64,000 bases of DNA, from positions 64,001 to 128,000 of the forward strand of contig JAVYVS010000003.1 in assembly GCA_038727515.1 (NCBI GenBank), given 5' to 3'. The stretch comes from Candidatus Methanomethylicia archaeon (GTDB taxonomy: Archaea; Thermoproteota; Methanomethylicia; Culexarchaeales; Culexarchaeaceae). A model generated the notes under the pieces. The model ran no database searches. It had not been told where the DNA came from and worked only from the letters and a program-made list of their open reading frames with translations. The position numbers were made by a program, and so were the translations under genes. Shown here piece after piece: positions 1,836 to 57,847 of this stretch. Every line of letters starts with the position of its first letter. Positions within the stretch are counted from its first letter, which is position 1.

Positions 1836-1872
1836 TATTACAACTTTAATCACAAAATTGGAGGTGATTTTT

Positions 1873-2193
1873 ATAGAGTACATATATGCAAGCCTCCTAC
1901 TACATTACGCTAAGAAGCCAATTGAAGAAAGTAGATTAAGAAAGATTTTAGAAGCAGCTGGAATTGAAATTGATGAGATAAAGTTGAAAGCAGTAACAAC
2001 AGCAATAAAAGAGATAAATATAGATGAAGCTATAAGCGCAGCATCAATTGCAGCCCCAATGGTAGCGATGCCAGCGGCTACAGTTGCATCATCTACTGAG
2101 ACGAAGACGAAAGAAGAAAAGAAGAAGGAAGAAAAGAAGAAGGAAGAAGAAGAGGAAGAAGTTGCAGAAGGATTAGCATCACTCTTCGGATAA
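1873..2193 (+). CDS. rpl12: 50S ribosomal protein L12 (stalk protein P1), probable ATA start
   Basis: (M)EYIYASLLLH matches the archaeal P1 N-terminus; GGAGGTGA lies 5 nt before ATA 1873; the ORF track starts at TTG 1858. Confidence 0.95.
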   Translation: MEYIYASLLLHYAKKPIEESRLRKILEAAGIEIDEIKLKAVTTAIKEINIDEAISAASIAAPMVAMPAATVASSTETKTKEEKKKEEKKKEEEEEEVAEGLASLFG

Positions 2194-2212
2194 ACAATCT
2201 TTAAATATACGT
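2077..2212 (+). repeat. 136-bp perfect direct repeat, copy 2 (P1 3' end and downstream sequence)
   Basis: Identical to 1700-1835. Confidence 0.95.
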
Positions 2213-2295
2213 AGACTATAGTTTAATTTTGCTAAACTTTATATTATATAGCTCAAAATAGGCATTATCTGATATTAGGAGCGGTGGTAAAATAA

Positions 2296-4980: not shown

Positions 4981-5648
4981 TGAGTATAAATTTAGAAGCA
5001 TTAAGAGAAGCAGTAAAGGATATGAGATATCTATTGAATAGAGGATACAATCGAAAAACAGCTGCAGACTATATTGCTTCAAGATATAAATTGAGTAAAG
5101 AAGAGAGAGCAATAATCTTCAGAGCAGTGTACCCAGAGCAACAAGTTCAAAATATATTAAAAAAATTACTAAGTCCAAAGGACATAATTGGAGAGAGATT
5201 ATTAATAGATGGATTTAATAATATAATAACGTTAGAAAGCGCTCTAAAGGGACATATATTATTGATGTGTGACGATGGAGTTATACGTGATATATCCTAT
5301 ACATCCAGGAAATTTAAGTTTTCACTATACACGGAAGATTCGATAAAAATGATTTTTGAATTATTAAAGGTGTATAGACCAGCTGAAGTTATATTCTTAT
5401 TTGACCAGCAAATTAGCTTTAGTGGGGAATTAGCGTCTATTATTAGAGATATAATTGAAAAGGAAAATTTAGTTGGTTATGCAAAAACATCAAAAAGAAA
5501 TGATAAAGAAATTTTATCAATCGGTGAAATTATAGCCTCAAGCGACTCCATAATAATGGAAAAAGCTAGAAAAATATTTGATCTTGCAGGTTACATAATT
5601 AAATCTAAATTTAAAGATAAAATACTTGATATAACTTCATTTAAATAA
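4977..5648 (+). CDS. DUF434-domain protein
   Basis: LREAVKDMRYLLNRGY N-terminus, IDGFN and DDGVIRD motifs. Confidence 0.8.
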   Translation: MMSINLEALREAVKDMRYLLNRGYNRKTAADYIASRYKLSKEERAIIFRAVYPEQQVQNILKKLLSPKDIIGERLLIDGFNNIITLESALKGHILLMCDDGVIRDISYTSRKFKFSLYTEDSIKMIFELLKVYRPAEVIFLFDQQISFSGELASIIRDIIEKENLVGYAKTSKRNDKEILSIGEIIASSDSIIMEKARKIFDLAGYIIKSKFKDKILDITSFK

Positions 5649-5653
5649 TTTAA

Positions 5654-5728: not shown

Positions 5729-5824
5729 GAAGATATATTGAACATGTCAACCATAAATTTATTCTCTCATCTTCAATGCGCAAAAAATATAAAAACAAAT
5801 TGTATTTTAGTAATGAAATCAAAA

Positions 5825-9828: not shown

Positions 9829-12486
<2,658 letters not shown>

Positions 12487-12487
12487 A

Positions 12488-13666
12488 ATGGAGTTTATGA
12501 CCAAAGAGGAAATAATTGGAGAAATAGATAAATTAAACAATATACTTCCACAATCAATAATTGAAGAATTAAAAAAGAAACTTTCCAACATCAAATTAAC
12601 AAAAGAGAAATTTGAGAAAATCATTGAAAAAGTAGTAGAAGAATATATTAATTCACTAGTTGAACCAGGAGATCCCGTGGGAGCTTTAGCAGCTCAATCA
12701 ATAGGAGAACCAAGCACACAAATGACTTTAAGAACATTTCACTATGCAGGAGTTAGAGAGTTTAACGTGACACTAGGTTTACCTAGATTAATAGAGATTC
12801 TAGATGCAAGAAGAATGCCATCAACACCAATGATGACAATATATCTAGATGAAGAACATAAATATGATGAAGAAAAAGCTAAAGAAATAGCTAGAGCCAT
12901 AGAAACAACATATATAGAAAATGTGATAAAGAATGTTGAAATAGATTTCATATCCGCATCAATAATTTTATTACTGGATCTAGAGGTCCTCAATGATAAA
13001 GGAATAAAAGTAGAAAATATCGTAAATGTTCTTGAAAAATTAAACCTTGGAGAAGTGGAAGTTAGAGATGAAGATAAAATCATAATACACACAAATATTT
13101 ATGAAATAAATAAACTACAGAAAATTAAAAACAGGATAATGAGCACCAAGATAAAGGGTATTAAGGGGATTAATCGTGTGATAATAAGAAGAGAGAAAAA
13201 TGAATACGTACTTTACACGGAGGGATCGAATCTCGCAGCAGTATTAAGGGTAAAGGGGGTTGACCCTACAAAAATATACACTAACAATCCATATGAAATA
13301 GCGGAAGTATTGGGAATAGAAGCTGCAAGAAATGCAATAATAAAAGAAGCGGTAGGGGTACTTGAAGAACAAGGTTTAGACGTAGATATAAGACACGTAA
13401 TGTTAGTTGCAGACATAATGACTGCTGATGGAAAAATAAGACAAATAGGTAGACACGGAGTAAGTGGAGAAAAACCAAGCGTATTAGCAAGAGCAGCCTT
13501 CGAAGTTACAATAAACCACCTATTGGAAGCAAGCATACGTGGTGAAGTAGATAGATTAATGGGAGTAACAGAAAACGTAATTGTAGGTCAAATAGTTCCA
13601 GTAGGTACAGGAATCGTACAAATGCTAATCACAATGAAAGATACAAAAAATGAAGAGAAAAGTTAA
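12488..13666 (+). CDS. rpoA2: RNA polymerase subunit A'' (Rpo1C)
   Basis: [17 protein letters not shown] motif. Confidence 0.98.
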
Positions 13667-13730: not shown

Positions 13731-14054
13731 ATGTCGCTTAAAATTGATCGAGAGTTACAAGTTGCAGCAAAAACGGGTAAAATTGTAATTGGTTCTAAAA
13801 GCGCAATTAAAAGAGCAAAAATTGGAGGAGCAAAAATGATAATAATTTCATCTACAATACCAGAGGATATAAAGGAAGATATAATTTACTATGCAAAACT
13901 CTCCAATATACCAGTAATAGAATTTCATGGATCAAGTTGGGATCTTGGAGCAATACTTGGAAAACCATTTATGGTATCAGCCGTATCAATAATTGATGAA
14001 GGAGAATCAGAATTACTAAAATTTGCGGAGAGTGATGTGAAATCCCGAGCATAA
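13731..14054 (+). CDS. rpl30e: 50S ribosomal protein L30e
   Basis: KTGKIVIGSK and LGKPFMVS motifs; conserved position after rpoA2. Confidence 0.96.
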   Translation: MSLKIDRELQVAAKTGKIVIGSKSAIKRAKIGGAKMIIISSTIPEDIKEDIIYYAKLSNIPVIEFHGSSWDLGAILGKPFMVSAVSIIDEGESELLKFAESDVKSRA

Positions 14055-14476
14055 AATTAACTATAGATGAAATGCATTATATATCATTGTTTGAGAGTTT
14101 AACTGGAGCTGTAACTAAAGATTGCATTTTAGATGATAAAAATGATAGAGTAATATTCATAGTTAGACAAGGAGATATGGGTTTAGCCATAGGGAAGGGA
14201 GGCGTAAACATAAAGAGGATAAAAGACATAATAAACAAGAATATTGAAGTTGTAGAATACGCAGAAGATCCAGAAACCCTAATAAAACATGCATTTCTAC
14301 CTGCAAGAGTAAAAGCAGTAAAGATAACAAAGACACCAGATAATGAAAAGATAGCATACGTAACTGTAGATCCACAAGATAAAGGTATAGCAATTGGCAA
14401 AAATGGGAAAAATATTTTAAAGGTAAAATTAATTGCTAAAAGATACTTCGACATAGAGAAAATTGTAATGGTATAA
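14042..14476 (+). CDS. nusA: Archaeal NusA transcription factor, probable ATC start
   Basis: Two KH domains (AIGKGG, AIGKNG); the family-like N-terminus PSIKLTIDE lies upstream of the first ATG (14072). Confidence 0.93.
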   Translation: MPSIKLTIDEMHYISLFESLTGAVTKDCILDDKNDRVIFIVRQGDMGLAIGKGGVNIKRIKDIINKNIEVVEYAEDPETLIKHAFLPARVKAVKITKTPDNEKIAYVTVDPQDKGIAIGKNGKNILKVKLIAKRYFDIEKIVMV

Positions 14477-21277: not shown

Positions 21278-21377
21278 CGCCGGGGGCGGGATTCGAACCC
21301 GCGCGGCCTTAAAGACCATCGGCTTTTTACGTTATACATAGCAAGCCGACGCCCTAACCAGACTAGGCGACCCCGGC
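21278..21377 (-). tRNA. tRNA-Ser(GCT) with 14-nt intron at 37/38 (21325-21338)
   Basis: TCGGC-TT-GCT-A[TGTATAACGTAAAA]A-GCCGA; long variable arm; BHB helix TTGC/GTAA. Confidence 0.93.
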
Positions 21378-23251: not shown

Positions 23252-24028
23252 TTGATGTTTAGGGCTAAGTACGGGTATTTGCTTGAGGATGAGGATGTTA
23301 GGCGCTGGTTTGATAATTTGGCTGCTAAGTCTCTATTAACCGCTACGGTTTACCTTAGGAATCTCGGCCTTTACTGCAAGCTAAATGGTACTGATCCTAA
23401 GGGCATTCTTAGGGATGCTGGCTCCAAGGCCTTTAAGGATCGCTTCGCGGATTTTGTTAGGCGTTTGGAGCGTGAAGGTAAGGCCGGCTCATATATTGCT
23501 AGGTTTAAGAAGGTTTTGAATAGCTGGCTTGCCTTCAACGGCATAAATGTTAAGCTTAAGGTTAATGTTAAGGGCGAGTCTGATGCGTCAACTATCGCTA
23601 ATGAACGTGTCCCAAATAGGGAGGAGCTTGACAGGATACTTCGGATGGCTACACCTCGGGCCAGGATCTCAATCGCCCTTATAGCATTCAGCGGCTTAAA
23701 GCCCCAGACGCTGAGAAACTATGATGGCAGCTACGGGGTTAGGCTCGGCGACTTTCCAGAAGCCGAAATACGCCCAGACGGAGTAGAATTCAAGAAGGTT
23801 TCCAACAATGCTCATAGTCAGGAAGAATCTGAGCAAGACTAAGCATCAGTACTTCACCTTCGTTCTGTAGCAGACAATAACATATATTAAAGAGTACCTG
23901 GAGAAGAGGGCTGAGGCTGGCGAGAGATTAGGCAGAGATAGCCCGCTATTGGGATTCGACCCCAGGGGGATTTAAGAAGAATAGGTTTTGGAGGACCACA
24001 CTTGTGACAGAGATATTAGGAAGGCCTT
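23252..24028 (+). pseudogene. Tyrosine recombinase/site-specific integrase, disrupted and truncated
   Basis: EDVRRWFDNL...AFSGLKPQ (K where R is expected); frameshift near 23800 continues PTMLIVRKNLSKTKHQYFTF, then stops; C-terminal catalytic part missing. Confidence 0.85.
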
Positions 24029-24993
24029 AGGGCTATTCTTAAGGTAAGCGTCTACTTCACAATTGGAATTGTTGGAGCGATGCTTTTTCCTCCATTTTAT
24101 TATGGGCTGGGAGATGATTGACGGTTTCATGCTTGGATCTATAATCAGCCAAACAGGAGCCGTAGTTATTGTGCCCTTGGCTAAAAGGATTGGGGTTCAA
24201 GCGGAGATGGCGGCCATACTTTCTATCGAGGCAATTGTAACTAGCATATTCAACATAGTTTTCTTTTCAGCTTTCCTAGAAGCACGCTTAGCGAAGTTTT
24301 AAACCTTGCTGAAGCCATAACTCTAATAGTAGCGAAATTCTCTGTAGGAATAGTAGTAGGGGTTATTGTAGGGTTATTTTGCCTACGATCCTATTCCTTC
24401 TTCAGAGAGAAGAGTTCACGTATATGGCCACGCTGGAATACTGCTGTTTGGCTATACCATTTCAGAAATGCTGAAGGGAAGCGGTGCTCTCACAGTCCTC
24501 ACTATTGGCATCATTTTAGGAAACGACAGAGAGATCCTTAGGCTGCTTGGGAAAAATCCTCTGCATGCGAGCGCCTTCTCCGAACTAAAAAGTATTTGGA
24601 GCACTTCCAAGCAGAAGTTTATTTTATTCTCAGAATATTCTTCTTCATGCTGTTAGGCTTATTGTTCGAGGTATCATCACTAAGCCTATTTGTAACATTA
24701 ACTTATGATCTACCCATCATCGGCATCCTCTTAGCTACGCGCTACTTGGTTACTCAATGTCGACGTGGAGGAGCCCCATGTTTTCTGAGAGGAAGATGAT
24801 TACGGATATGTGTGCGCTTGGATTAACACCAGCCCTCCTAAGCCTAATACCCTTACAGTATAATCTGCCCAATTCTAATCTTTACACACTCATCATCACA
24901 AACTTGATAGTACTAACCAATATCCTAACCTCAATATCGACTATAAAAATACGGAAGAAAAACAAAAACAAAGATTACATCAAGATATCTTAA
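24029..24993 (+). pseudogene. Cation:proton antiporter (CPA1/NhaP-like), 5'-truncated and fragmented
   Basis: Four consecutive hydrophobic fragments (LGSIISQTGAVVIVPL, GSGALTVLTIGIILGN, EVYFILRIFFFMLLG, ALGLTPALL) in shifting frames. Confidence 0.8.
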
Positions 24994-25044
24994 ACTTCTT
25001 TGTTCTAAACCATTTGTCAGTAAGTGATGTGAATTAAGAAAGTT

Positions 25045-27378
25045 TTATACGTGGCCAAAAATTTTGTATACTGCGATTTTAGCGGCATCTGTAGCTAGCA
25101 ATGTTACCATGATAGTGTAGATCAGCGCTAACGCTATGGCATATGGGGGCAGTGATGGTATTATTATGCCTCTCCATACAAGCGTTGTTGCAGCTACGCT
25201 GTCAACTATTATAGCTAGCAGCATGTACCTGCTTGGTTTCGAGCTCCAAAATGCTCTAGTCTCCCTAAAGTTCACTATGTTTAGAAGCCCTGAGAGGAGG
25301 AGTATATAGAACATGAAGCTTTGTAGCTGCGGGTATGACAGGTTAATGAGTTTTGCTATGTGTAACGCTATAAATAGTTCCGCGAGTTTTACAATGCCAA
25401 GCATAGTTGATATTACTGTAAGCTTCGTTATATTCCATTTCTCCGGCCTTCTACCTGGCTTTAATACGTCGATGCTTATGGACAGCGTTACAAAATCATA
25501 GAGGAAAAGCATTAATATCATGTGCGTGGGCGTTAATATTGGGAGCCCGAGGAGCAGCGTTGATATAACCACAAAATATACAATGCTAAATGTCTTAACG
25601 ATCTTGTTTATGGTCCAGACAACGATCTTCCTATAGATCATCCTCCCAAGCCTTATAATGTCGGCGATCTCCCTCAGCCCCGGAGATGTGAGCACCGCGG
25701 AGGCAACTGATTTAGCTACGTCCGTAGCCCCGCTCACGGCTATGCCTAAATCTGCCTTCTTAAGAGCCGGCGCATCGTTTACCCCATCACCCGTCATGCC
25801 GACCACATGCCCCTTCTCCTGCAGAGTTTCTACGATATTGTACTTGTCCTCAGGTACGACTTCCGCGAAGACCTCAATATCCTCGACGCCTTCAGTTAGC
25901 CGCTCTTTTGAAATCTCCCTCATGCTAATAGCCTTCTCGCCTATGCCAACTTTACTCGCTATGGCTTTAGCTATGTGTATATTATCCCCTGTAACCATTT
26001 TTGGTGTTACACCAAGGCTCTTTATGACATCTATAAATTGCTTAGAATCTTCGCGGGGCCTGTCATAGAGTCCTAACAGCCCAATGATCTCAATGATGTT
26101 CTGCTGGGCCTCTATTGCCACGGCCAGCAGCCTAAGCCCCTCCCTACTGAGCCCCCTAATGATCTCCTCAATATCCTCCTTATTGTTATTGGCGGCTAGC
26201 TGGAGAAGCGCCTGTGGCGCACCCTTAATAACTCTTAGCTTTCGTCCTTGAATCTGAACTAATGCTTCGCTCCTCTTTGTCTCCGGCGTGAATGGCTTAA
26301 ATTCTAAGATGCTTGCCACGTTTATGTTAATGTTCATCTCTTTAGCTTTCTGTCTAATGGCGTTATCTATGGGATCTTTCGTTATCTCTTCTGATGCCAG
26401 AGCAGCATATAGCAAAACGTCTTCCTCGCCATATCCGCCACTTAACGAGATCACCCTGTCAACCACTATCCTGTTCTCAGTTATTGTCCCCGTTTTATCT
26501 AGGCATATAACGTCCATCATGGAGGCAGCCTCTATGGCCTCAAGCCTCCTAACAATTATACCGCTCTTCGCGAGCTCAACACTTCCCAAAGCCAGAGTTA
26601 TAGTGGTCATGGCTGGCAGAGCTATGGGTATCGAGGCTAACAGCAACGTTAAGGTGAAGGGCAGGAGATCTAAAATGTTAAGCCCCGCCAGAATAAGCTT
26701 AGCTACAACCAAGACTATGAAGAGGGAGTCTACTAGAAGAAGCCACTTAGTTATGCTATTGGTTATCTCCTCTATTATGAGCCTAGGCTTCGCTATTTGG
26801 ACAAGTTCGATGGTTCTACCAAAGCGCGTCCTTACACCTGTCACAACTATTCTGATAATTGCTTCTCCCCTAACAACTGTGGTTCCAGCGTAAACATTAT
26901 CGTTAACGCTTTTCTCAACAGGCATGGATTCTCCGGTCAGCGCGGATTCATCAACAGTTATAGAACCCTCCACGATAACGCCGTCAGCTGGCGCAATGTC
27001 GCCCATAGAGATCTTCACAATATCATCTGGCACAATATGCTCAGCTGCAACATCAACCCACTTACCATCTCTCAGAGCTTTCACGGTCACTTTTAGCTTC
27101 GATTTAAGCATCTCAATAGCCTTACCAGCCCTATATCCATGAACAACACCAATAACGGCATTTACGAGGAGCAGCGAAACCATTATAGCGAAGTCTACGT
27201 ATTTCCCCAAAACAAAAGAGATCGCGGCGGCCACCTCTACAGTATAGGGTGTTAGCCCTGTGAGCTTCTTTAGGAAAGACACCGCGATATTCTCCCCTTT
27301 TTCAGGAACCTTATTGGGGCCGTAGATTTTGAGTCTCTCAACGACTTCTTCGCTAGTTAAACCTTTATGCTTGCTCAT
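25045..27378 (-). CDS. P-type H+-exporting ATPase (type IIIA-like)
   Basis: TGES, ASIPIALP, DKTGT, KGAP and GDGVNDAPAL; intact 777 aa. Confidence 0.88.
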   Translation of the reverse strand: MSKHKGLTSEEVVERLKIYGPNKVPEKGENIAVSFLKKLTGLTPYTVEVAAAISFVLGKYVDFAIMVSLLLVNAVIGVVHGYRAGKAIEMLKSKLKVTVKALRDGKWVDVAAEHIVPDDIVKISMGDIAPADGVIVEGSITVDESALTGESMPVEKSVNDNVYAGTTVVRGEAIIRIVVTGVRTRFGRTIELVQIAKPRLIIEEITNSITKWLLLVDSLFIVLVVAKLILAGLNILDLLPFTLTLLLASIPIALPAMTTITLALGSVELAKSGIIVRRLEAIEAASMMDVICLDKTGTITENRIVVDRVISLSGGYGEEDVLLYAALASEEITKDPIDNAIRQKAKEMNININVASILEFKPFTPETKRSEALVQIQGRKLRVIKGAPQALLQLAANNNKEDIEEIIRGLSREGLRLLAVAIEAQQNIIEIIGLLGLYDRPREDSKQFIDVIKSLGVTPKMVTGDNIHIAKAIASKVGIGEKAISMREISKERLTEGVEDIEVFAEVVPEDKYNIVETLQEKGHVVGMTGDGVNDAPALKKADLGIAVSGATDVAKSVASAVLTSPGLREIADIIRLGRMIYRKIVVWTINKIVKTFSIVYFVVISTLLLGLPILTPTHMILMLFLYDFVTLSISIDVLKPGRRPEKWNITKLTVISTMLGIVKLAELFIALHIAKLINLSYPQLQSFMFYILLLSGLLNIVNFRETRAFWSSKPSRYMLLAIIVDSVAATTLVWRGIIIPSLPPYAIALALIYTIMVTLLATDAAKIAVYKIFGHV

Positions 27379-27466
27379 CTCATATACCTACTCATCTACA
27401 CCGTTTTAAACAAGAATTCTTAAATATTTCTTCTTATTGTCAAGTTCAACATAATGGCGATTAAGA

Positions 27467-28639
27467 ATGAATAGAAAAATATTCGCGGTGTTTGTGCTGC
27501 TCGGGCTTATCTCTTTAGCTGCCGATATGGTTTATGAGGGGGCTAGGTCCGACAGCGGAGCCTATCTAGAGCATCTGGGCGCTCCGCCCATTGCCTCATC
27601 CATCATTGGCGTAGGCGAATTTATAGGATACTTTCTCAGGTTCGTAAGCGGTGTGCTAGCATCCTACTTGGGGTCTTCGGTTGCCTTCTGGGGCTTTGTG
27701 GCGTTGGGTTACGCCACGACCGTCATAGCCTTACCCCTCCTTGCCTTTGCGGGCTTATGGTGGATTGCAGCATCACTATGCCTCTTGAAGAGGATTGGGA
27801 GGGGCTTAAGGACTCCTGTGAGGGACGTGATTTTAGCCGAGGTTACGGAGGGTGTTGGTAGGGGGAATAGTTTCGGCCTCCACAAGGTTATGGATCAAGC
27901 TGGCGCCCTAGCGGGACCGCTTCTCTTCACATACATGCTCCTAAACTACGACTATTCTAAAGCATTTTTAACGATTCTAGCCCCGGGCATATTGGCTATG
28001 ATGTTCGTGTTCACAGCATGGTCTCTCTATCCAAAGATTAAGAGCGTTGAGGTTTTACCGAGGAAAGTTTCGTTTAGAGACGTAGGCAGAAGATCCTGGC
28101 TATACACGCTATCAATGATCCTACAGTCCCTAGGCTTTGTGCACTGGGCTATAGCATCCTACTTCCTAAAGTATTGGAGGATCTTAGGGAACGCTGATAT
28201 AGCAATACTATACGCAATTGCGATGGGTGTAGACGCCCTCGTAGCCTTCCCAATAGGATACCTATATGATACGATAAAGTTTAAGAGCCTCTATGTAGCG
28301 CCCATAACAACGCTAATATAACATTACTGTTGACTGCGAAGACCACTGCGCTAGCGTATGCGATGGCGGTTCTCTGGGGAGTCACCATGGGCGTCTCGGA
28401 GACGATTATGAGGGCTTCTATAGCGGACATAGTCGGCAGAGATGGGCTTGGCAGTAGCTTACGGCATATTCGGAATGCTTTACGGGGTCTCATGGAGCGT
28501 CGGAGGCTTCATAATAACCTTCCTACTAGAGTTATCAGCGCCAATAGCAATAGACTACACGAGCCTAACGCAAGCATCATAACTTCTAATGCTAGCAGTG
28601 TTAAATAGGCAAATTAGCTCTGAAAGCCTACGTCACTAG
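27467..28639 (+). pseudogene. MFS transporter, frameshifted
   Basis: SLAADMVYEGARS and GRGLRTPVRD; frameshifts near 28320 and 28445 (continues LAVAYGIFGMLYG) plus an internal TAA. Confidence 0.82.
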
Positions 28640-28695
28640 TCAACTATTTTAAGCCCATCACCCATTGTGGCGTTATATACCTAACCTGTTCCGCC

Positions 28696-29063
28696 TTAAC
28701 CTTCCTTAAGATCTTTAAGGATCTTCTCCACCTGCTTGATGGCGTATTCCGCCTCATCAGGTTTATAGACTCCATTATAGAGCGCTTCGTCATGCAGAGT
28801 TTTCATGACGTCACTGTAAACGGCCCTCAAATCCTCGCACCCTATCTTCCTGAGAAGCTCTCTCCTCCCGCTGTGGGATCTAGGCGTCACATTTAATTTA
28901 CGATGGATATAGGAGTTTACCGCAAGCACCATGCTTAAGAAGGCTTTATCAACAGCATTCCTATAGAGAAATATATCGCCTAATTTAATAGCCTTCTCAA
29001 ACCCCTCCTAGCATACTTTAAGATCTCCCTCAGCGGTTATGGATGCGGCATTTTCCTCACTTA
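28696..29063 (-). pseudogene. HEPN/PaREP1-like small protein, disrupted at the 5' end
   Basis: Frame extends upstream as FEKAIKLGDIFLYRNAVDKAFLSMVLAVN...PRSHSGRR...LHDEALY; frameshift and stop near the start. Confidence 0.55.
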
Positions 29064-29208
29064 AACGCCCCGCCGCATGCCATAGATAAATAGTGGTATA
29101 GGAAATAAATGGGATGCCGAGACTACGTGAGAAGTAACGCTCCATAAATTATGGCGGATCAAATCAATTAAGCAGAAATTCTTTAAAACGCGGTTCCTCC
29201 CGATAAAC

Positions 29209-32181
29209 TTAAGCAGGATAATTATATTCTTGATTTATTCTGCCGTATCTCGCCTTAAGATAGACGCTGATGTCCCGCCAGTCATCTAATATTTTAGGCC
29301 AGAGCTCGCTGAACACATATTTATTAACGTAATCCTTCATCGCCTTTTCACGCCTAATTTTCCCCTCACGCCAGTCGACGGATACTAGGCCCGCTCTGCG
29401 CAAATACCGGAGGCTGCGGTAAATCTCCTCTGGGCTAATGGGATAGGCTACTGCGCGCTCTAAATCGCTGATTAAAGCGTTTATGGGTATTTCATCCTCA
29501 TACCTCAGATAAATCATAGCTATAGTATCCTGAGTCACCCTCATGGTTCTGCTCAAATACAGCCCAATCCCCCTAGACGGCATTAGCACCTGCTCTAAGC
29601 GATGCCCATACCTCCTATAGAACCAGCTCTTAGCAGCTTCCACCAGCGCCAAATATGCGCTTATTATGGCGGCCAGCGCGAGATAAAATTCGATCGGGGG
29701 CTGAACAAACCTGAAGACCGCTCCCAGCCACGTGTATGGCAGCGCTAGAGCGAAGATTATTACGGATGCGCTTGTGAAGATCAAGGCTTTGCTGGGCCTA
29801 CTCCTGTAGAATGGGAACAGCCTTGTCCTTATGATAAAGACGACCAGCGTCTGCGTTAACAGGGACTCTAGGAACCATGCTGTCTGAAACAGCGGCTCAG
29901 CGGCCTTAAATGCTAAGAGCATCATGAAGTATGTTAGAAAGTCGAAGAGCGAGCTTATAGGTCCAAAGAACACCATGAACCTTCTCACGAAAAATATATC
30001 CCACCTCTTAGGCTTCTCTAAGTATTCCCTGTCGACATCGTCCAGCGGGACGGCTGTTTGAGTCAAATCGTATAGTAGGTTGTTTAAGAGTATTTGTATT
30101 GGGAGCATTGGTAGGAATGGTAGGAATAATGAACCTAGGGCGACGCTGAACATGTTCCCAAAGTTTGAGCTAATAGCCATCAGGATATACTTCATAGCGT
30201 TGCCGAAGGTTTTCCTACCCTCTAAAACGCCATCATAGAGTATAGTTAGATCGTTCTCTAGGAGGATTATGTCCGCGGCTTCCTTCGCAACATCGACAGC
30301 ATTATCCACGGATATGCCAACGTCAGCATTCTTCAGCGACGGCGCATCATTGATACCATCGCCGAGGAAGCCGACCACATGTCCATTAGCCCTCAAAGCG
30401 CTTATTATCCTATTCTTTTGGGCTGGGGTCACGCGGCAGAAGACGTTCACCTCCTCAACAGCCCTCGCTAGGGCGTCATCATGCATATGCTCAATCTCGC
30501 TTCCGAGGAGAATCCCTTTAATCTCAAAGCCTAAATGCTCACATACTTTCCTAGTGACGAGCTCATTGTCGCCGGTAAGTATCTTCAGCTCCACGCCAGC
30601 CTCCCTTAGGAGCTTTATTGCTTCTCTCGCGGTTTCTTTAGGCGGGTCGAGGAAACCTATAAAGCCTAGAAAAACCATTTCGCTCTCATCGCTGATGGAG
30701 TATACGGGCTTATATTCCCTCAGGCGCTTATACGCTACGCCCAGAACCCTATATCCTTCAGCGCTCAGCTCAAGGTATTTCCGCTCAATCTTTTTACGAG
30801 CCTCATCAGTTAAATCAGATACTACGTCGTCCAGCTCATAGAATAAGCATATCTTTAGGATCTCCTCCGGCGCACCTTTAGTGATCATGTAGCGCTGGTC
30901 TTCATGTTCAATAACTATTGAGAGACGCTTACGTATAAAGTCGAATGGTATCTCGTCGATCTTCCTGTAACCCGCAATATCTACACTCTTATATGCTAGT
31001 ACAGCCTCATCGAGGGGGCTTCTTAACCCAGTCTGATAATAACTATTTAGGTATGAGTATAGTAGCACTTTCTCGCTTTCTCTTCCGTTAACGTCAACGT
31101 GGAATATTAACCTTATCTTGTTCTCCGTTAATGTTCCGGTTTTATCAGTGCATAAGATGTCCATGCACCCAAAGTTTTGTATTGACGCTAAGCGCTTAAT
31201 TATAACCTTCTTCCTAGACATATTTATTGCGCCCTTAGACAGGTTTATTGAGATTATCATTGGTAGGAGATCCGGGGTCAGGCCGACGGCCAATGAGACT
31301 GAGAAGAGAAGCGACTCGAGAACATCCCGCTTATAGAGCGCGTTTATGAAGAAGATGAATAGGACTAGTAGAAACGTGGTCTCCATAATCATGTAGCCGA
31401 ACCTTCGTATGCCCCTTTGGAACTCGGTCTCAGGGCCTCTGGCGGCAAGCGCCCTAGATATCCGCCCATACTCCGTTCGACTCCCAGTCCTAACAACAAC
31501 AGCCGTGGCGGATCCGCTGACGACGGATGTCCCCATAAAGAGATAATTGCTCCACTCGGTAATTGGAAGGTCGCCCGATTTAAGGGGCGTAGGGGTCTTC
31601 TCAACTGGAAATGATTCTCCAGTTAAAGCTGATTGATCCACGCATAGATCCTTTGCGTTTATCACCCTAGCGTCCGCTGGCACTATGTCTCCAGCCGAGA
31701 GAAGTATGATGTCGCCTGGAACTATCTCGCTCATCTTTACTTCGCGCTTAAATCCATCCCTAATGACCGTGACTGTGAGAGCAACCCTTTCCCTCAGCAT
31801 CTCAGCGGCTCTCTCAGCCTTATGCTCCTGATAGAAATCTAAAAGCGTGCTCATAACTACTATCGAGAACACTATTATAGCGCTTTCATGATCGCCTAGG
31901 AGATAAGAGATTAAACCGGCTATCAGCAATATGATCACTAGAGGGTTTCTGAAATGGTATAAAAACTCTATTATAAGAGACCTCTTCCTCCTCCCGGCAA
32001 CCTCATTGTAGCCGAAAACTTCAAGGCGCCTTTCCACTTCCTCTGAGGAAAGCCCATTTAATGAGGTCTTCAGGCGTGAAAAGATTTCTTCAACAGGCAA
32101 TGTTAAAATTTCTTCGGTGCTCGGCAGAACCCATTCTAAAAATCCGCCAACCCTTGACATTTCTGAATTCTGATTACTCAT
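29209..32181 (-). CDS. mgtA: Magnesium-translocating P-type ATPase (type IIIB) with a C-terminal extension
   Basis: AVGLTPDLLPMI, DKTGTLT, GDGINDAP, SSNFGNMFS and FQTAWFLESLLTQ; ATG 32181 after AGGTGG. Confidence 0.9.
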   Translation of the reverse strand: MSNQNSEMSRVGGFLEWVLPSTEEILTLPVEEIFSRLKTSLNGLSSEEVERRLEVFGYNEVAGRRKRSLIIEFLYHFRNPLVIILLIAGLISYLLGDHESAIIVFSIVVMSTLLDFYQEHKAERAAEMLRERVALTVTVIRDGFKREVKMSEIVPGDIILLSAGDIVPADARVINAKDLCVDQSALTGESFPVEKTPTPLKSGDLPITEWSNYLFMGTSVVSGSATAVVVRTGSRTEYGRISRALAARGPETEFQRGIRRFGYMIMETTFLLVLFIFFINALYKRDVLESLLFSVSLAVGLTPDLLPMIISINLSKGAINMSRKKVIIKRLASIQNFGCMDILCTDKTGTLTENKIRLIFHVDVNGRESEKVLLYSYLNSYYQTGLRSPLDEAVLAYKSVDIAGYRKIDEIPFDFIRKRLSIVIEHEDQRYMITKGAPEEILKICLFYELDDVVSDLTDEARKKIERKYLELSAEGYRVLGVAYKRLREYKPVYSISDESEMVFLGFIGFLDPPKETAREAIKLLREAGVELKILTGDNELVTRKVCEHLGFEIKGILLGSEIEHMHDDALARAVEEVNVFCRVTPAQKNRIISALRANGHVVGFLGDGINDAPSLKNADVGISVDNAVDVAKEAADIILLENDLTILYDGVLEGRKTFGNAMKYILMAISSNFGNMFSVALGSLFLPFLPMLPIQILLNNLLYDLTQTAVPLDDVDREYLEKPKRWDIFFVRRFMVFFGPISSLFDFLTYFMMLLAFKAAEPLFQTAWFLESLLTQTLVVFIIRTRLFPFYRSRPSKALIFTSASVIIFALALPYTWLGAVFRFVQPPIEFYLALAAIISAYLALVEAAKSWFYRRYGHRLEQVLMPSRGIGLYLSRTMRVTQDTIAMIYLRYEDEIPINALISDLERAVAYPISPEEIYRSLRYLRRAGLVSVDWREGKIRREKAMKDYVNKYVFSELWPKILDDWRDISVYLKARYGRINQEYNYPA

Positions 32182-32857
32182 TATTTCCACCTACATCTAT
32201 CTTCGCCGAATAACCTTTAAAGCTAGACTCTTACGTTCTTATAAAAATGCTGTTCATAAAGTTCTTTTTACCAACCCTAAAGTTAAAACCAACAACTGTT
32301 TTATTAGAAGACTGTTAGGGGCGATTAAAAAGCCCTAAATACCAATTAGATAATTTGACTAGGGTATTTGTTTATGACCCTTTGGAGAGATATCTTCTAT
32401 ACCTTCTGAAATCTTAGACATGATTATCGAAGTTATAAGTTGTTCAAGATATAAGTATTAGTATAACTTTCAATGGAAAATTTTGTTTTAGAACACATAA
32501 TATCATCCCTCGATGTTTCCCCATTGAGTGCAATTTTGTTCTGCAGATATAGTTTGATGATGAAGACCCATTTGATATTATGGCGCTCAGCTATTAGCTC
32601 CTTGAAATTGGCTATCTCGCGAAGGTTAAGGCGCATTAATAATTGAGGAAGAATATGTAAAGGAACAAAACATTATTCTGAAAAATTCTAGTTTTAAATT
32701 TATTGAAATTTTTAGTACTACAAAAACGCAAAAAAGCAAAGAAAACTAACGGGGAAACTTCTAGATTATTAATGATTTTTGTTGGTTGAGTGTTCTTCTA
32801 ACAACTCAATGCAGATATGGACCTCTTTTTTGGTGTCAATGTTAGTTAAAATCACGA

Positions 32858-41038: not shown

Positions 41039-41139
41039 TGCGGGGGGTGGGATTTGAACCCACGAACCCCTTCGGGACAGCCGTTCCGAGAATATATCAC
41101 CTCAGGGCTGCGCCTTTGTCCTGGCTTGGCTACCCCCGC
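41039..41139 (-). tRNA. tRNA-Leu(GAG) with 16-nt intron at 37/38 (41084-41099)
   Basis: CAGCC-CT-GAG-G[TGATATATTCTCGGAA]C-GGCTG; BHB helix CTGA/TCGG. Confidence 0.93.
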
Positions 41140-51049: not shown

Positions 51050-51778
51050 TTAATTATCACTTTTATTGCATAATTTATTTAATTCAAGTAATATATGTCT
51101 AAAAACTCCCATTAAAGTGTAAGCTTCTCTACCTGAAATAAACGCTCTACCAATAACATGCTTAAAAATTATAAAGGCTCTTTCTTTACGATGAGAAGGT
51201 ATATTTAGAGTTTCTAAGATTTTACTGAAATATTCCAAAAGTTTTTCTTTTTCTATTCTAGAAGCTTCTCGAAAACCTTCTTGTCTTGAAGAAAGTTGTG
51301 ATGATGAAAGCTCATAAAGTATTATTGCAACTGCATGACTAAGATTTAATGATGGATACATCTTACTAGTAGGTATAGTCACTATTATATCACATAGTTT
51401 TAATTCTTCATTTTTAAGACCAATACTTTCTCTACCAAAAATTAGCCCTATATTACCCTTAACATCCTTCATCGATTCAACAAGCATTTTAGGGGTTATT
51501 GACATTCTTGCAACATTATAATCATGACCACTTTTACTTGTAGTGCCCACCATAAAATCTACGAAATCCTTAACTTCATATAAACTATTAAGAATCATTG
51601 CATTCTCAAGTACACTTTTTGCATGAACAGCATAAACATATGCTTCATTTAAATTACACTTAGGATTAACCAAAATAATATGTTTAAAATTGAAATTCAT
51701 TAAACTTCTTGCAATAAAACCAACATTAGCTGAATTTTCAGGTTCAACGAGTACAACATATATGTTTTCGTTAATCAT
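51050..51778 (-). CDS. trmJ: tRNA 2'-O-methyltransferase TrmJ family
   Basis: VEPENSANVG, FGRESIGL and SLNLSHAV motifs. Confidence 0.9.
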   Translation of the reverse strand: MINENIYVVLVEPENSANVGFIARSLMNFNFKHIILVNPKCNLNEAYVYAVHAKSVLENAMILNSLYEVKDFVDFMVGTTSKSGHDYNVARMSITPKMLVESMKDVKGNIGLIFGRESIGLKNEELKLCDIIVTIPTSKMYPSLNLSHAVAIILYELSSSQLSSRQEGFREASRIEKEKLLEYFSKILETLNIPSHRKERAFIIFKHVIGRAFISGREAYTLMGVFRHILLELNKLCNKSDN

Positions 51779-52419
51779 GCTAGAGTCACCTTAAAGAGAT
51801 ACAGCTTTTCATAAAAGAAACTTTTCTCAGAAATAATTGAAATTTTAAACCCCATATTGGTGAGTTTATCAATAGTTTTTTTGTGATCAGAAAGAGAAGA
51901 TTGTAAAAGAAGTACTTCGCCAGATGGTTTAAGTATATTTTTAAAGGTATCTAAAAATCTATCCAATAACAACCTACCATTAAATCCACCACACCACATC
52001 CTTAATTCTTCCTCATATACGTATTTATCAAAGTCATTCATAGGTAAGTATGGTGGATTAAAAGTTATTATATCAAATATTGGTTTAAATTTTATTGAAG
52101 TTATCAAATCTCCTCTAATTACAGAAACTTTTTGTTGAAGACCATTTAACTTTACATTATAAAAAGTATTTTTAGTAGCTAAACTACTTACATCAATAGC
52201 AATAACATGTTTACAAATCCTTGTTAACATCAAGGTTAATATACCACACCCACACCCGATATCAAGACCATATTCATATTCATTGTTAAGCGAATATAAA
52301 AAGTCAGCAATCATATAGCTATCATCAGATGGATAATAAACTCTTGGGAAGACTACTATTTTAAAACCGTAAAATACTATTGACTGGCTATTTTCAATAG
52401 TTTTTATACTATCAATAAT
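51775..52419 (-). CDS. HemK2/PrmC-like (release factor glutamine) methyltransferase, probable ATT start
   Basis: DIGCGCG and NPPY motifs; the VYYPSDDSY motif lies upstream of the first ATG (52314). Confidence 0.88.
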   Translation of the reverse strand: MIDSIKTIENSQSIVFYGFKIVVFPRVYYPSDDSYMIADFLYSLNNEYEYGLDIGCGCGILTLMLTRICKHVIAIDVSSLATKNTFYNVKLNGLQQKVSVIRGDLITSIKFKPIFDIITFNPPYLPMNDFDKYVYEEELRMWCGGFNGRLLLDRFLDTFKNILKPSGEVLLLQSSLSDHKKTIDKLTNMGFKISIISEKSFFYEKLYLFKVTLA

Positions 52420-53265
52420 TTAATCACCCCTCCTTAAAGTCTCTACATATTTATACACATATGAGGAAATCTCATATACATCATTTACGCTAAGATCAAT
52501 CACTCTTATTTCTTGAAGAGAAATTCCACTTAAAATTTTATTCCACATGTCTTTAGGAATCTTAATAACTTCAAAGAACTTAGGTAAAACGTTTTTTAAC
52601 TTTCTATTCCTTTGAGTGAAGATAAATCGTGTTAATTCCAAGAAAAATTCATCCAATGGATTTAAAGGAGTGCTTCTATTCATTGAGATACGTATTAGGG
52701 ATACGTCCACTTTAGGTGGTGGATAAAAACATACTCTAGGTACTTTATCTATAAACTCTATAGAGAAAAAGAAGTTTGAAGTAACACTTAACCTGCCATA
52801 ATCTCTTGAGCCAGGTTTAGCTAACATTCTATCTACAAATTCTTTTTGTAATGTTAAAACAGCCTTATTGAAATGATATTCCTTTGCTATCTTAAAAAGT
52901 AAAGGTGATGATATATTAAATGGAACATTTGAAATTATCTTATCTACATTAATTGGGCCTAATTTCATAATATCAGCCTGTATAATCTCTACATTATTAA
53001 AATCTTTCAGTAAACTTCTAAGTACATTCACAAGTTTCCCATCTATCTCAACAGCTATAACTTTTCTAGCTTTTTCAGCTATTCTTTTAGTTAAAAATCC
53101 AAGTCCAGCTCCAATTTCAAGTACGATGTCGCTACTTTCAATGTTTGCACAATCTATTATCTTAAAAATTAAATTTGAACATACAACGAAATTTTGACTT
53201 AATCTCTTTTTCGGTTTAATATCATACTGCTTTAATAACTTTCTAACTTCACTCAACAGATCCAT
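52420..53265 (-). CDS. rsmA: 16S rRNA dimethyladenosine transferase KsgA/Dim1
   Basis: KKRLSQNF, EIGAGLG, SNVPFNIS and PPPKVD motifs. Confidence 0.95.
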   Translation of the reverse strand: MDLLSEVRKLLKQYDIKPKKRLSQNFVVCSNLIFKIIDCANIESSDIVLEIGAGLGFLTKRIAEKARKVIAVEIDGKLVNVLRSLLKDFNNVEIIQADIMKLGPINVDKIISNVPFNISSPLLFKIAKEYHFNKAVLTLQKEFVDRMLAKPGSRDYGRLSVTSNFFFSIEFIDKVPRVCFYPPPKVDVSLIRISMNRSTPLNPLDEFFLELTRFIFTQRNRKLKNVLPKFFEVIKIPKDMWNKILSGISLQEIRVIDLSVNDVYEISSYVYKYVETLRRGD

Positions 53266-53852: not shown

Positions 53853-53886
53853 TAAAAACACCTAAGATAAAATAATTGAATTGAAA

Positions 53887-54225
53887 CTAATAGAACCTTT
53901 TTATAACTTCTAACATTTCCTGTAATTCTGATGTTAAGAAGATGCGTCCTTCTGTTAGAAGTAAAATTCTTAATTCTTCTATACTTCTTGGGAGTATATT
54001 AACTATTTGAACAGCTGAGAAACGGGATATATTAAAATCTTTAGTTAATTTTTCTATTAAAGCTTCAGCACGTTGAGGATCAATCTTTGAAAATTTTGAT
54101 GAAACATCTAAAGTTAAATTTTGTAAAGCAGAAAGTTCACCACTTTCCTTTCTCTTCTGAAGAAAATCTCTAACAATTGTATAAGGTACTTCTATTTTTT
54201 CAATAATTTTCCTTGAAATAAACAC
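53887..54225 (-). CDS. rpoF: RNA polymerase subunit F (Rpo4); start GTG 54225 or ATT 54219
   Basis: KFSKIDP and QIVNILPRSIEELR motifs; follows rpl21e. Confidence 0.92.
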   Translation of the reverse strand: MFISRKIIEKIEVPYTIVRDFLQKRKESGELSALQNLTLDVSSKFSKIDPQRAEALIEKLTKDFNISRFSAVQIVNILPRSIEELRILLLTEGRIFLTSELQEMLEVIKRFY

Positions 54226-54244
54226 ACCCCCTAAACATGAAATA

Positions 54245-54541: not shown

Positions 54542-54605
54542 TTCTTCTTCACCTAATAGCGCATTATTACAATAGTTTATATGTAGAGTGCCTAATAAAT
54601 ATTCG

Positions 54606-55949
54606 CTACAAATGTTCAGAAACAAAAATAACTGCTAGTTCTATACATCTAGCATTTGAATTTAATATTTGAGAAAAGTTCGGCAAAGTTCTACCATTGT
54701 CTCCGCTGATAAGCTCTTTAACGTAAAGGCCGCCTTGACATTCAATTATTGCTTTAAACGTCTTTTTATTTATGATCTCAGTTTTTAATGAATAAACCTT
54801 TTTAATCCTCAATTTATCAGCCCTTCTATGTAAAACACGCAATGGTGTATATTGCCTAATTTCTCTATTATAGAAGTACTCTTCTAAATTTTTAAGAAGT
54901 ACTTCATTTATTTCATTATCAACTTCAACAATGGCTTGATAAACTTTCTTTGCAAGTGAAGAAATATTTTTCAACATCCTTACCTCCCTTCTATTTGAGA
55001 ATTTAATTAATTTAACATCAATCTTCCCATCAGATAGTTCGTTGATCTTTTTCTCTAAAGCATTTAAATCAATAAACCTATACCTAGGATTTTTAATTTC
55101 AACTATAAAAGGGCGTCCATTTCCAAGCGTCAATGTATCTACATCCTCCCTCCCCGCTCCATGGAAAATTCCTTCTGAACCTTTTACTAATTCTAATGTT
55201 GGATTTATTATAAGCTCAGAAATGGAAGTATTGTAACGTTTCCCAGTAAAATTACACTTAGAACATCCTCTCCCAAAACAATTACTACAAAACCACGTTG
55301 TCTGGGGAATATCACGTACAAATTTTCTATATCTACCATAAATGAATATTGGTTTTGATTGAATGTCAACGCTATTGTTGACAATGTCTATTACTATTAC
55401 TATGTCTGGGTCGTTAAATGATACTTCTTTATTTAATGTATTCTGCAATTTTTTACCTAATAATCGGTTAACTTCTGATTTTAATGACTCACCAACATTT
55501 ATACAAAATTGAGATCTAATGGAATCTTCTCTCTCTAAAAAGATTGCAGGAATTTTTGTTCCGACGAGAAATGTCTTAAATTCATATTCATTTATTATTT
55601 TTAGAACTTCCTTGATGTAATCATCTAATTTGCTGAATATGCCTCCACATACATAACATTCATTTGGAGGTGGAAGATCGTACCCAAGATGAACCAATAT
55701 ATCCTTAGCAGGCTCAAAAAGGCCATTAACTGCTAAAACCTTTAAATTATCTATAGCTGTATTTACGGATTCTGATTCTTCATCTTTTAATATTGAATGA
55801 TATAACATCGTTAATACTAACTTTATTGAATACCCCCTCTCAAAGTTATTAATACCTTTACTTAATCTTGCAAATAATCTACCTAAACAATGATTACATA
55901 ATGGATATTTTCGAAGTATTTCCATTGAAAGTCCCAAAATGTCGATCAT
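54606..55949 (-). CDS. pus10: tRNA pseudouridine 54/55 synthase Pus10
   Basis: LCNHCLGR, FHGAGREDVD and GLYVKELISGD motifs. Confidence 0.95.
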   Translation of the reverse strand: MIDILGLSMEILRKYPLCNHCLGRLFARLSKGINNFERGYSIKLVLTMLYHSILKDEESESVNTAIDNLKVLAVNGLFEPAKDILVHLGYDLPPPNECYVCGGIFSKLDDYIKEVLKIINEYEFKTFLVGTKIPAIFLEREDSIRSQFCINVGESLKSEVNRLLGKKLQNTLNKEVSFNDPDIVIVIDIVNNSVDIQSKPIFIYGRYRKFVRDIPQTTWFCSNCFGRGCSKCNFTGKRYNTSISELIINPTLELVKGSEGIFHGAGREDVDTLTLGNGRPFIVEIKNPRYRFIDLNALEKKINELSDGKIDVKLIKFSNRREVRMLKNISSLAKKVYQAIVEVDNEINEVLLKNLEEYFYNREIRQYTPLRVLHRRADKLRIKKVYSLKTEIINKKTFKAIIECQGGLYVKELISGDNGRTLPNFSQILNSNARCIELAVIFVSEHL

Positions 55950-56506
55950 AGCAATTCCCCTACCTGTTTATCTATATAATTATTTATCACCATTATAATA
56001 GGTCCAGGTAATTTATATTTTGAGTAAATCTTAACAGATTTTGCCCCACCTTCAATTAATAATTTTAAATAATTTGATTCAATATTTGGATAACAAATTA
56101 AAAACTTAAAGTTTTTGGGAAAAGAAATATTTTCAATTCTAATACCTTTATCTTCATAAAAAAAGAGGTTACCCAAACTACCAATGATACCAAGAAAATC
56201 TTTGTATCCACATACGATTCCAGGTAAAATTCTAAACACTTTGCTTGTTTTCTCACTTTTTGATAAAAATGATGAAGCTTTACGGAAAATTCCCATGATC
56301 GACTGCATATCAGGTCTTAGATTCTTCAGAGTACTAGAAGTAAAACTAATATATATAGAATTAGGGAAGTATAAGATTAATTTTGTGTCTAATCGAATTC
56401 CATGAGAAAGAAGAAGTGCTGAATAAACTGTTGAAGATAGTATGTATGGTATTTTATCCATCAAATATTTCAATTCTCTATTAAACTTTACTATAAAAGT
56501 TCTTAT
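55946..56506 (-). CDS. Divergent TrmY-like SPOUT protein (m1-psi54 methyltransferase family), probable ATA start
   Basis: (M)RTFIVK N-terminus, ALLLSHGIRLD, NLRPD and PGI; immediately upstream of pus10. Confidence 0.75.
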   Translation of the reverse strand: MRTFIVKFNRELKYLMDKIPYILSSTVYSALLLSHGIRLDTKLILYFPNSIYISFTSSTLKNLRPDMQSIMGIFRKASSFLSKSEKTSKVFRILPGIVCGYKDFLGIIGSLGNLFFYEDKGIRIENISFPKNFKFLICYPNIESNYLKLLIEGGAKSVKIYSKYKLPGPIIMVINNYIDKQVGELL

Positions 56507-56509
56507 AGT

Positions 56510-57847
56510 CTAAACCCCTATAACTCCCTTTAACTTACCAAATAATTTTGTTCGTCTCTTTAATGTTCTCATTAACTTTTTCATATTTTTATATTGATCT
56601 AAAAGCTCTTGAACATCGCGTATAGACGTTCCTGAACCAAAGGCTATTCTACGCATCCTAGATCTATCGATGATTTCAGGATTCTCTCTTTCTTCCTTTG
56701 TCATTGACTCTATTATGGCAGAATACTTCTTGATCTTCTCTTTAGAAACTTCTTGAAATTCTTCTGGAAGATTTATTGAAAAACCTGGAATCAACTGAAT
56801 TAATTTATGTAAAGGTCCCATACTTGATATAGCTTTCAATTGTGTTAATAAATCCTCCAATGTAAATTTTCCGGAGAGAAAACGTTGTGCATCTTCTTCT
56901 GATGGCGTATACTGTACAGCTTCGAATTTCTCAATTAGAGATTCTATATCACCAAATCCAAGTATTCTCCCAACGAATTTACGGGAATCAAATATTTCTA
57001 TTTCCTCCACTTTCTCACCAGTACCTATGAATTTTATTGGAGCTCCTGTAACTGCAACTGCAGATAAGGCACCACCACCTCTTGCAGATCCATCAAGTTT
57101 TGTTAAGAAGATGGATCCTATTTTCGTAGCTTCATGAAAAGCTTTAGCTTGAATAGCTGCTTGTTGTCCTATTGTAGCATCAATCACGAGCATTATTTCA
57201 TCTGGATTTACCTTTTCTGCTATTTCATGCATCTCATTTATTAATCCTTTTTCCTCTTTATGTCTACCTGCTGTATCAAGAATTATTATGTCAAAACCTT
57301 CTTTAATGAATTTATTAACACCATTAATAGCAATGCTAATAACATCTCTAGCAGTATCTTCCCCATATACTGGAACACCTATTTTTTCACCTAATTGTTT
57401 TAATTGTGCAAACGCTCCAGGACGGTAGTTATCAGCACAGACTAATCCAACCTTGAAATTCCTCTTTTTATAATATAATGCTAATTTTGCAGCCGAAGTT
57501 GTTTTCCCAGATCCCTGTATACCAACAAGCATAATAATATAAGGCTTTTTCGTAGGAAGCTTAAATTTTTCAGTCAAATTTCCACCGAGTAATTTGACCA
57601 ATTCATCATAAACAATTTTTAATAATAAATCTCTCTTTGAAAAACCTTGTGGAATTTTTTCCTCTTTTACTCTTTTTTCAATATTTTGTGATATTTGAAA
57701 AACTAGATTAACATTAACATCTGCTTGTAAAAGAGCTCTTTGAATATCTCTTATAAACTCCTTTAATGTTTTTTCATCAATTATAGGAGCTTTCGTTATC
57801 TTTCGTATAGCATCTCCCAAAGCTTTGCTCAGAGCTTCTAACACCAT
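56510..57847 (-). CDS. srp54: Signal recognition particle protein SRP54
   Basis: GIQGSGKTT, DTAGRH and TKLD motifs; M-domain RRIAFGSG. Confidence 0.97.
   Translation of the reverse strand: MVLEALSKALGDAIRKITKAPIIDEKTLKEFIRDIQRALLQADVNVNLVFQISQNIEKRVKEEKIPQGFSKRDLLLKIVYDELVKLLGGNLTEKFKLPTKKPYIIMLVGIQGSGKTTSAAKLALYYKKRNFKVGLVCADNYRPGAFAQLKQLGEKIGVPVYGEDTARDVISIAINGVNKFIKEGFDIIILDTAGRHKEEKGLINEMHEIAEKVNPDEIMLVIDATIGQQAAIQAKAFHEATKIGSIFLTKLDGSARGGGALSAVAVTGAPIKFIGTGEKVEEIEIFDSRKFVGRILGFGDIESLIEKFEAVQYTPSEEDAQRFLSGKFTLEDLLTQLKAISSMGPLHKLIQLIPGFSINLPEEFQEVSKEKIKKYSAIIESMTKEERENPEIIDRSRMRRIAFGSGTSIRDVQELLDQYKNMKKLMRTLKRRTKLFGKLKGVIGV

Follow-up and report, generated by a model that had tools for sequence, protein, structure and literature searches.

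The DNA analysed here, a window of 64,000 nucleotides (nt) covering positions 64001-128000 of contig C3 of an archaeal draft genome (G000; 1.59 Mb, 33% G+C, 12 contigs, 94% complete), holds five conserved genes in which an isoleucine codon stands where the first methionine of the family is expected: rpl12, nusA, rpoF, a trmY-like gene and a HemK2-like gene. Our comparison of these sequences with those of relatives makes it probable, in our judgement, that the genes start at ATA, ATC or ATT (AUA, AUC or AUU in the mRNA, together AUH) by ordinary initiation directed by a Shine-Dalgarno (SD) sequence. The nearest named relatives of the rpl12 gene come from metagenome-assembled genomes (MAGs) of Candidatus Methanomethylicia, and on that basis the source, a hot-spring archaeon, is placed in the class Methanomethylicia. 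For each gene 40 relatives, drawn from eight families of this class (f1 to f8, f1 being the window's own), were searched and the DNA was inspected at the aligned start.

The 3' end of the 16S rRNA in this genome reads ...GGATCACCTCCT, which makes AGGAGGTGATCC the full SD, and the motifs ahead of the five genes are therefore true complements of the anti-SD sequence. Counted from the A of GGTGA to the start codon, the spacing of canonical ATG and TTG codons at the head of long open reading frames (ORFs) peaks at 4-7 nt, and that of starts supported by orthology peaks at 5 nt; the five isoleucine codons lie at 4-6 nt, within the canonical range. Orthology-supported, SD-led starts (n=440) comprise 273 ATG (62%), 148 TTG (34%) and 19 GTG (4%). 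All five genes begin 0-56 nt past the stop of the preceding gene, or overlap that stop.

The gene for stalk protein P1, rpl12, lies in the cluster rpl1-rpl10-rpl12-alaS. Read from ATA 1873 (1873..2193, plus strand), it encodes 106 amino acids beginning I/M-EYIYASLLLH, and its SD GGAGGTGAT (1860..1868, plus strand), complementary to the 16S 3' end over 9 nt without a mismatch, is parted from the ATA by the spacer TTTT. ATA or ATC occupies the position of Met1 in 20 of 30 relatives belonging to four families, the remainder having TTG or ATG: the codon ahead of EY[IV]YA is ATA in f1 (6/6) and f2 (1/1), ATA or ATC in f3 (5/5) and f5 (8/8), TTG in f7 (6/6), and ATG in f4 and f8. All 20 relatives with ATA or ATC carry a motif of the same type (GGAGGTGAT, GGGGGTGAT or GGAGGTGGT) 5 nt upstream. 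In a wider scan, with one genome per species for which rpl12 could be aligned, ATA or ATC was found at Met1 in 8 of 80 loci, and in 7 of these the SD and the isoleucine codon are separated by an in-frame TGA or TAG, with no canonical codon between. The GTG within the SD, which is the rival start for this gene, is therefore removed in those loci, which belong to MAGs recorded as Desulfurococcales, Desulfurococcaceae or Thermoprotei. As read from the sequence, the ATA/ATC start of rpl12 is unambiguous in those 7 lineages and recurs beyond Methanomethylicia, and an ATA start is the parsimonious reading for G000 too. Separately, a direct repeat of 136 nt, 100% identical between its copies (1700-1835 and 2077-2212), takes in the terminal 117 nt of both rpl10 (P0) and rpl12 (P1) together with 19 nt beyond each stop; it has the look of gene conversion across the acidic C-terminal tails that the two proteins have in common, or of assembly collapse.

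The gene nusA closes the cluster rpoH-rpoB-rpoA'-rpoA''-rpl30e-nusA. Its SD-like motif GGAGAGTGA (14027..14035, plus strand) lies within the final codons of rpl30e, and the TGA that it contains is the in-frame stop ahead of nusA; the spacer TGTGAA and ATC 14042 follow, and the first ATG comes at 14072. Translated from the ATC (14042..14476, plus strand), the product has 144 amino acids and two KH domains (PF07650, KH_2; PF13184, NusA-like KH), and equals in length the solved NusA of Aeropyrum pernix (2CXC, 144 amino acids), to which residues 5-143 align against 6-143 with an E value of 4.7e-34. The start position holds ATA or ATC in 15 of 30 relatives (ATC in f1, 5/5; ATA in f2, in f3, 4/4, and in genus g10 of f5, 5/5) and otherwise mostly ATG, GTG or TTG. 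Across 30 genomes of the class the N-terminal sequence [start]-P-[S/N/Q/T]-I-[K/R]-L-T..DE is retained while its codons have undergone many synonymous changes, and this part of the gene is therefore translated. In the genomes bearing ATA or ATC an in-frame stop stands 0-7 codons upstream, and in G005 the downstream ATG of nusA is missing too. At 14035-14040 of the window an ATG followed by TGA, a start-stop pair in another frame, overlaps the SD, and f1 relatives too carry an ATG, within GTGATG.

The other three genes belong to a minus-strand series running SRP54, trmY-like, a gene of 447 amino acids, rpl21e, rpoF, DUF655, ksgA-like and HemK2-like. The trmY-like gene, for a SPOUT methyltransferase beginning I/M-RTFIVKF..., runs from ATA 56506 (55946..56506, minus strand); it is named only for its likeness, since its score against PF04013 (TrmY, the tRNA pseudouridine-54 N1-methyltransferase) is 23.9 bits, below the cut-off of 25.5, with a match to MJ1640 at E 4e-4. 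Its SD-like motif AGGGGT (56514..56519, minus strand) lies in the last codons of SRP54, and the spacer TTTAGACT holds the in-frame SRP54 stop TAG (56512-56510), then ACT and ATA 56506, and TTG is first met at codon 13. ATA, ATC or ATT is present here throughout the order, in 11 genomes of 11: at I/M-R-x-F-I-V-K-F the codon is ATA in f1 (6/6) and f2 (1/1) and ATT, ATC, ATA and ATA in the four genomes of f3, and f5 has TTG or ATG. Fusion of NusA to L30e, or of the trmY-like protein to SRP54, through readthrough or frameshift was considered and rejected for this order, in which the relative frames vary among genomes.

For rpoF (Rpb4 family; 53887..54219, minus strand), the SD-like GGGGGTGTG (54223..54231, minus strand) is parted by TTT from ATT 54219, and the codon before P-[K/R] is ATT or ATA in f1 (6/6) and ATG, GTG or TTG in other families. 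The HemK2/Mtq2-like methyltransferase gene (51775..52419, minus strand) follows directly upon the in-frame TAA (52422-52420) of the ksgA-like rRNA adenine dimethylase gene, in whose last codons its SD AAGGAGGGGTGAT (52423..52435, minus strand) lies; ATT ATT then begins at 52419, and the first ATG is codon 36, past the conserved segment VFPRVYYPSDDSY (YGF..VFP). Its placement behind the ksgA-like gene is common to relatives, which begin with ATG or TTG about 10 codons before YGF..VFP, the ATT being found only in G000; the match to PF05175 (E 1.3e-11) stands among many generic methyltransferase hits. With an in-frame stop 0-2 codons upstream, nusA, the trmY-like gene and the HemK2-like gene therefore have no usable ATG, GTG or TTG ahead of their conserved residues.

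A first-pass annotation of the window had pointed to an isoleucine codon at Met1 behind an SD in these genes, more weakly for rpoF, spaced as for ATG and TTG starts, and this holds for all five. Its further observations, that three genes (those just named) have an in-frame stop upstream and no canonical start, that all three AUH codons occur (ATA in rpl12 and the trmY-like gene, ATC in nusA, ATT in the HemK2-like gene and rpoF) and that TTG starts are common, were likewise confirmed, and the starts it proposed to compare with sister genomes are shared with relatives in every gene but the HemK2-like one. It also foresaw that gene callers would misplace such starts: the public record of this rpl12 is a protein of 109 amino acids starting from the GTG inside the SD, those of close relatives have 128-129 amino acids from a TTG far upstream, and public calls that use the GTG of GGTGA begin VIFIEY.. 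or MIKIEY...

Further cases in the genome were found by comparing G000 with the 1.08-Mb main contig of a genome of the same family but another genus (G003). Reciprocal-best, stop-to-stop ORFs gave 1048 pairs before filters and ~950 after, and artefacts were taken out by eye. Nine genes need a non-canonical start, and it is ATA, ATC or ATT in 8 of them. Besides nusA and the trmY-like and HemK2-like genes, these are a Hel308-like helicase (ATT; the first canonical codon is codon 87, beyond Walker A, and G003 has ATG three codons upstream), the gene at C1:564978 (ATA; first canonical codon 53), a DUF1177 gene (ATA at the exact position of the ATG of G003, behind GGAGGTGA), a P-loop kinase outside the window (ATT, with ATA in G003-G005; ATA, ATC or ATT in 5 of 6 f1 genomes; first ATG inside the Walker A motif GMPG) and a protein of 125 amino acids on contig C4 (ATA or ATC in both G000 and G003). 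The ninth, a bPH_2-domain gene (contig C7, reverse-complement 11739-12588, minus strand), has a conserved N-terminus with neither ATG, GTG or TTG nor ATA, ATC or ATT, and carries CTG 6 nt behind AGGTGA; in G003 a TTG stands two codons earlier. By alignment and SD spacing rpl12, rpoF and an S-adenosylhomocysteine (SAH) hydrolase gene also look like ATA or ATT starts, and were missed by the filter because an in-frame GTG or TTG is present. From the sequence comparison the total would be roughly 8-12 of ~950 genes, about 1%, nearly all ATA, ATC or ATT. G003 carries cases of its own (ATT, ATA, CTG and a possible ACG).

Several other candidates from this comparison were set aside. The ATT-like start of NAC (C5:11048) and the ACG-like start of adenylosuccinate lyase (C1:574377) are ambiguous, each having an in-frame ATG two codons upstream, and wherever TTA, TTT, GTA or CTT aligned with a start in G003 a canonical start adjoined. 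Upstream conservation was rejected as a marker of coding sequence, many of its hits being rRNA shadow ORFs, contig edges, conserved promoters (EF-1alpha; C5:75848) or the interruptions of cbf5 and hypD. These two genes (cbf5, contig C2, minus strand, reverse-complement 298387-299167; hypD, C2:203850-204842) are broken relative to G003 at the conserved motifs GTL/DP and CGTH, respectively, and the breaks are consistent, as far as sequence can tell, with mRNA introns.

The machinery of initiation appears ordinary in this genome. The initiator tRNA is canonical (A1:U72, a G:C-rich anticodon stem, anticodon CAU), the three CAU tRNA genes match the expectation for initiator, elongator Met and Ile2, and the aIF1 gene (C1:655337) begins at an ordinary ATG behind GGAGGA. 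Two tRNA genes of ~100 nt in the window (21278-21377 and 41039-41139, minus strand), found by Rfam and missed in a first ARAGORN pass, probably contain introns. The suggestion of the first-pass annotation that the lineage might routinely initiate at AUH codons is thus not borne out by the ~1% of comparable genes affected, nor did the initiator tRNA and the aIF1 gene start, which were inspected, lend support to a changed machinery. Its alternative, a tuning of translation and transcription genes, finds partial support, in that the cases concentrate there and the lack of any return to ATG, across distances from family to class, fits. The affected set is enriched in genes of the ribosome, RNA polymerase and RNA or protein modification; start choice has not been relaxed in general.

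In the mechanism that we favour, the SD would pair with the 16S 3' tail and place in the P site the codon 4-6 nt downstream. This AUH codon stands at the exact position of the ATG, TTG or GTG of orthologues in rpl12, nusA, rpoF, the trmY-like gene and the kinase, and in nusA, the trmY-like and HemK2-like genes, the helicase and the kinase there is no usable canonical codon between the in-frame stop and the conserved residues. The standard initiator tRNA (CAU) would read the codon with a third-position mismatch, giving an N-terminal Met. Initiation there would be weak, which would reduce the yield of a gene inside an operon compared with that of the gene before it, and selection may keep the codon weak, because ATA and ATC interchange among relatives and ATG never appears within the clades carrying them. 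The pattern goes beyond chance, since independent genomes retain the same isoleucine codon at equivalent places in the alignment and 8 of 9 non-canonical starts among ~950 pairs are ATA, ATC or ATT. Translational coupling probably contributes, because all cases are internal operon genes near an upstream stop. The likely gatekeeper of these starts would be aIF1, because this factor rejects AUU in vitro (PMC4705826).

The alternative that survives best, although we consider it unlikely, is that ordinary starts are used after all: in-frame GTG or TTG codons for rpl12, rpoF and SAH hydrolase, and downstream ATG or TTG codons, giving shortened proteins, for nusA and the trmY-like and HemK2-like genes. 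GTG 1864 and TTG 1858 of rpl12, both of which fall inside the SD, and GTG 54225 of rpoF are indeed in frame, gene callers pick such codons, and short extensions are tolerated, as other lineages have an ATG 2-3 codons ahead of the isoleucine (MFDIEY.., MEIEY..). However, the GTG of GGTGA is automatically in frame at 5-nt spacing; while paired to the anti-SD it could not be placed in the P site, it has no SD of its own, and GTG makes up only 4% of starts. In rpoF of G000 the counterpart of the SD GTG of relatives falls in another frame, and GTG 54225, which is in frame, does not correspond to it; the GTG position is therefore not conserved, whereas the ATT is. The 7 rpl12 loci with a stop between SD and isoleucine codon also speak against a GTG start. 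As for downstream starts, they would delete residues conserved across the class, and in the kinase strand 1 and part of Walker A, or in the helicase 87 codons.

A second alternative, which we regard as quite improbable, is termination-reinitiation, in which ribosomes ending the upstream gene restart nearby, codon identity is minor, and ATA, ATC or ATT is one tolerated outcome. The operon positions already described agree with it, above all those of the HemK2-like gene, whose ATT abuts the TAA, and of the trmY-like gene, which starts 3 nt after the TAG, and so do the f5 nusA genes described below. Yet free codon identity predicts many codons, and in G000 and its order ATA, ATC or ATT was found in 8 of 9; relatives of rpl12, the trmY-like gene and rpoF have only ATA, ATC or ATT or else ATG, GTG or TTG; and rpl12 starts 56 nt beyond the rpl10 stop with a perfect SD of its own. 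Artefact or decay (assembly or consensus error, pseudogenes, AUA read as Met, RNA editing, or an intron supplying the AUG) is very improbable: the genome is a draft with four cases private to it and mRNA introns in cbf5 and hypD, but separately assembled genomes show the same codons, the reading frames are uninterrupted and share 60-90% identity with their orthologues, SD spacing targets the isoleucine codon itself, the three CAU tRNA genes are those of the standard code, and recoding of AUA as Met was rejected because ATC and ATT starts occur as well and ATA is freely used at conserved isoleucine positions.

Some observations nevertheless weigh against SD-directed AUH initiation. For rpl12 and rpoF, with the in-frame codons just listed, and for SAH hydrolase, with an in-frame GTG in or beside its SD, the sequence alone would allow a GTG start in G000. 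The private sites (HemK2-like gene, helicase, DUF1177 gene and C1:564978) are known from the base calls of the G000 assembly alone. The SDs of genes with ATA, ATC or ATT are only partly stronger than others (at least 7 nt in 3 of ~10, versus 10% overall). A crude count of orphan SDs in this single genome gave no excess of ATA, ATC or ATT over other AT-rich codons; this census, made noisy by in-gene GGTGAT motifs and non-genes, shows that the cases are few, not pervasive. Finally, the start position of nusA is GTT, TTA or TTT in three f5 genera (g13, g14 and g20; loci L086 in G033, L087 in G031, L089 in G021 and L090 in G019). There nusA is in the same frame as rpl30e, parted from it by the stop and one other codon, and has no start codon of any kind. 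These genes lie outside simple near-cognate pairing and hint that coupling to rpl30e translation may outweigh codon identity; they could reflect restart without a start codon, or readthrough.

NCBI translation table 11 lists ATT, ATC and ATA as alternative initiation codons for bacteria and archaea, so that the codons seen here are formally allowed, although in practice gene callers use ATG, GTG and TTG. To our knowledge only two genes of Escherichia coli have AUH starts, and the frequency found here, about 1% of genes, is far above that. The literature searched held no report of AUH starts in archaea, which is not proof of their absence; what appears new, as read from the sequence, is the class-level conservation of AUH starts in rpl12 and nusA within Thermoproteota. 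In bacteria, AUU or AUA starts occur in E. coli infC, the gene for IF3, and pcnB, autocontrol of infC being described in PMC4705826, and Enterococcus faecalis ebpA starts at ATT (PMC4447247). Like these, the genes described here are SD-led with a conserved weak AUH codon, annotation often chooses the wrong start for them, and attenuation and reading by the initiator tRNA would be shared. Unlike them, they are archaeal, with initiation through aIF1, aIF1A and aIF2, and, unlike infC, they encode not a fidelity factor but stalk P1, NusA, RpoF and modification enzymes. Since the aIF1 gene starts at ATG, autoregulation of the infC type is inapplicable. Archaeal aIF1 discriminates against AUU in vitro, as summarised in PMC4705826: the archaeal 30S subunit with Met-tRNAi binds AUU mRNA under the control of aIF1, which is the step where tuning would act. 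That work used model mRNAs, whereas here natural genes hold ATA, ATC or ATT over long evolutionary times.

Elsewhere in the window, an island at ~24000-32200 has 45-46% G+C and holds two genes for P-type cation ATPases (25045-27378; 29209-32190, minus strand) and a fragment of a major facilitator superfamily (MFS) transporter. Because of its gene content and of its contrast with the 33% G+C of the genome, it was probably acquired horizontally.

A more ambitious proposal, which we hold to be doubtful, is that the weak starts form a selected, fidelity-sensing regulon, in which the output of P1, NusA, RpoF, the tRNA/ribosome-modification operon and the nucleotide kinase rises when aIF1 stringency falls. 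If true, accessory proteins of the ribosome and RNA polymerase would respond to the condition of the initiation apparatus; Archaea would have their own version of the infC logic, acting on other genes, of class-spanning age and recurrent in other Thermoproteota; and the GTT, TTA and TTT of nusA would mark an even looser, coupling-dependent restart. At the level of annotation, P1, NusA, RpoF, the trmY-like protein, the kinase and the helicase have wrong N-termini in the records or would be cut into their catalytic motifs, a problem that spans many genomes of Methanomethylicia and other Thermoproteota. A weak start is an oddity on a ribosomal protein of which each ribosome needs several copies. 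That the single substitution giving ATG has not occurred, at distances from family to class, speaks for selection of weak starts in these highly conserved genes. Because archaeal initiation factors are eukaryote-like, conserved AUH starts would be natural substrates for the policing of the third codon position by aIF1 and aIF2.

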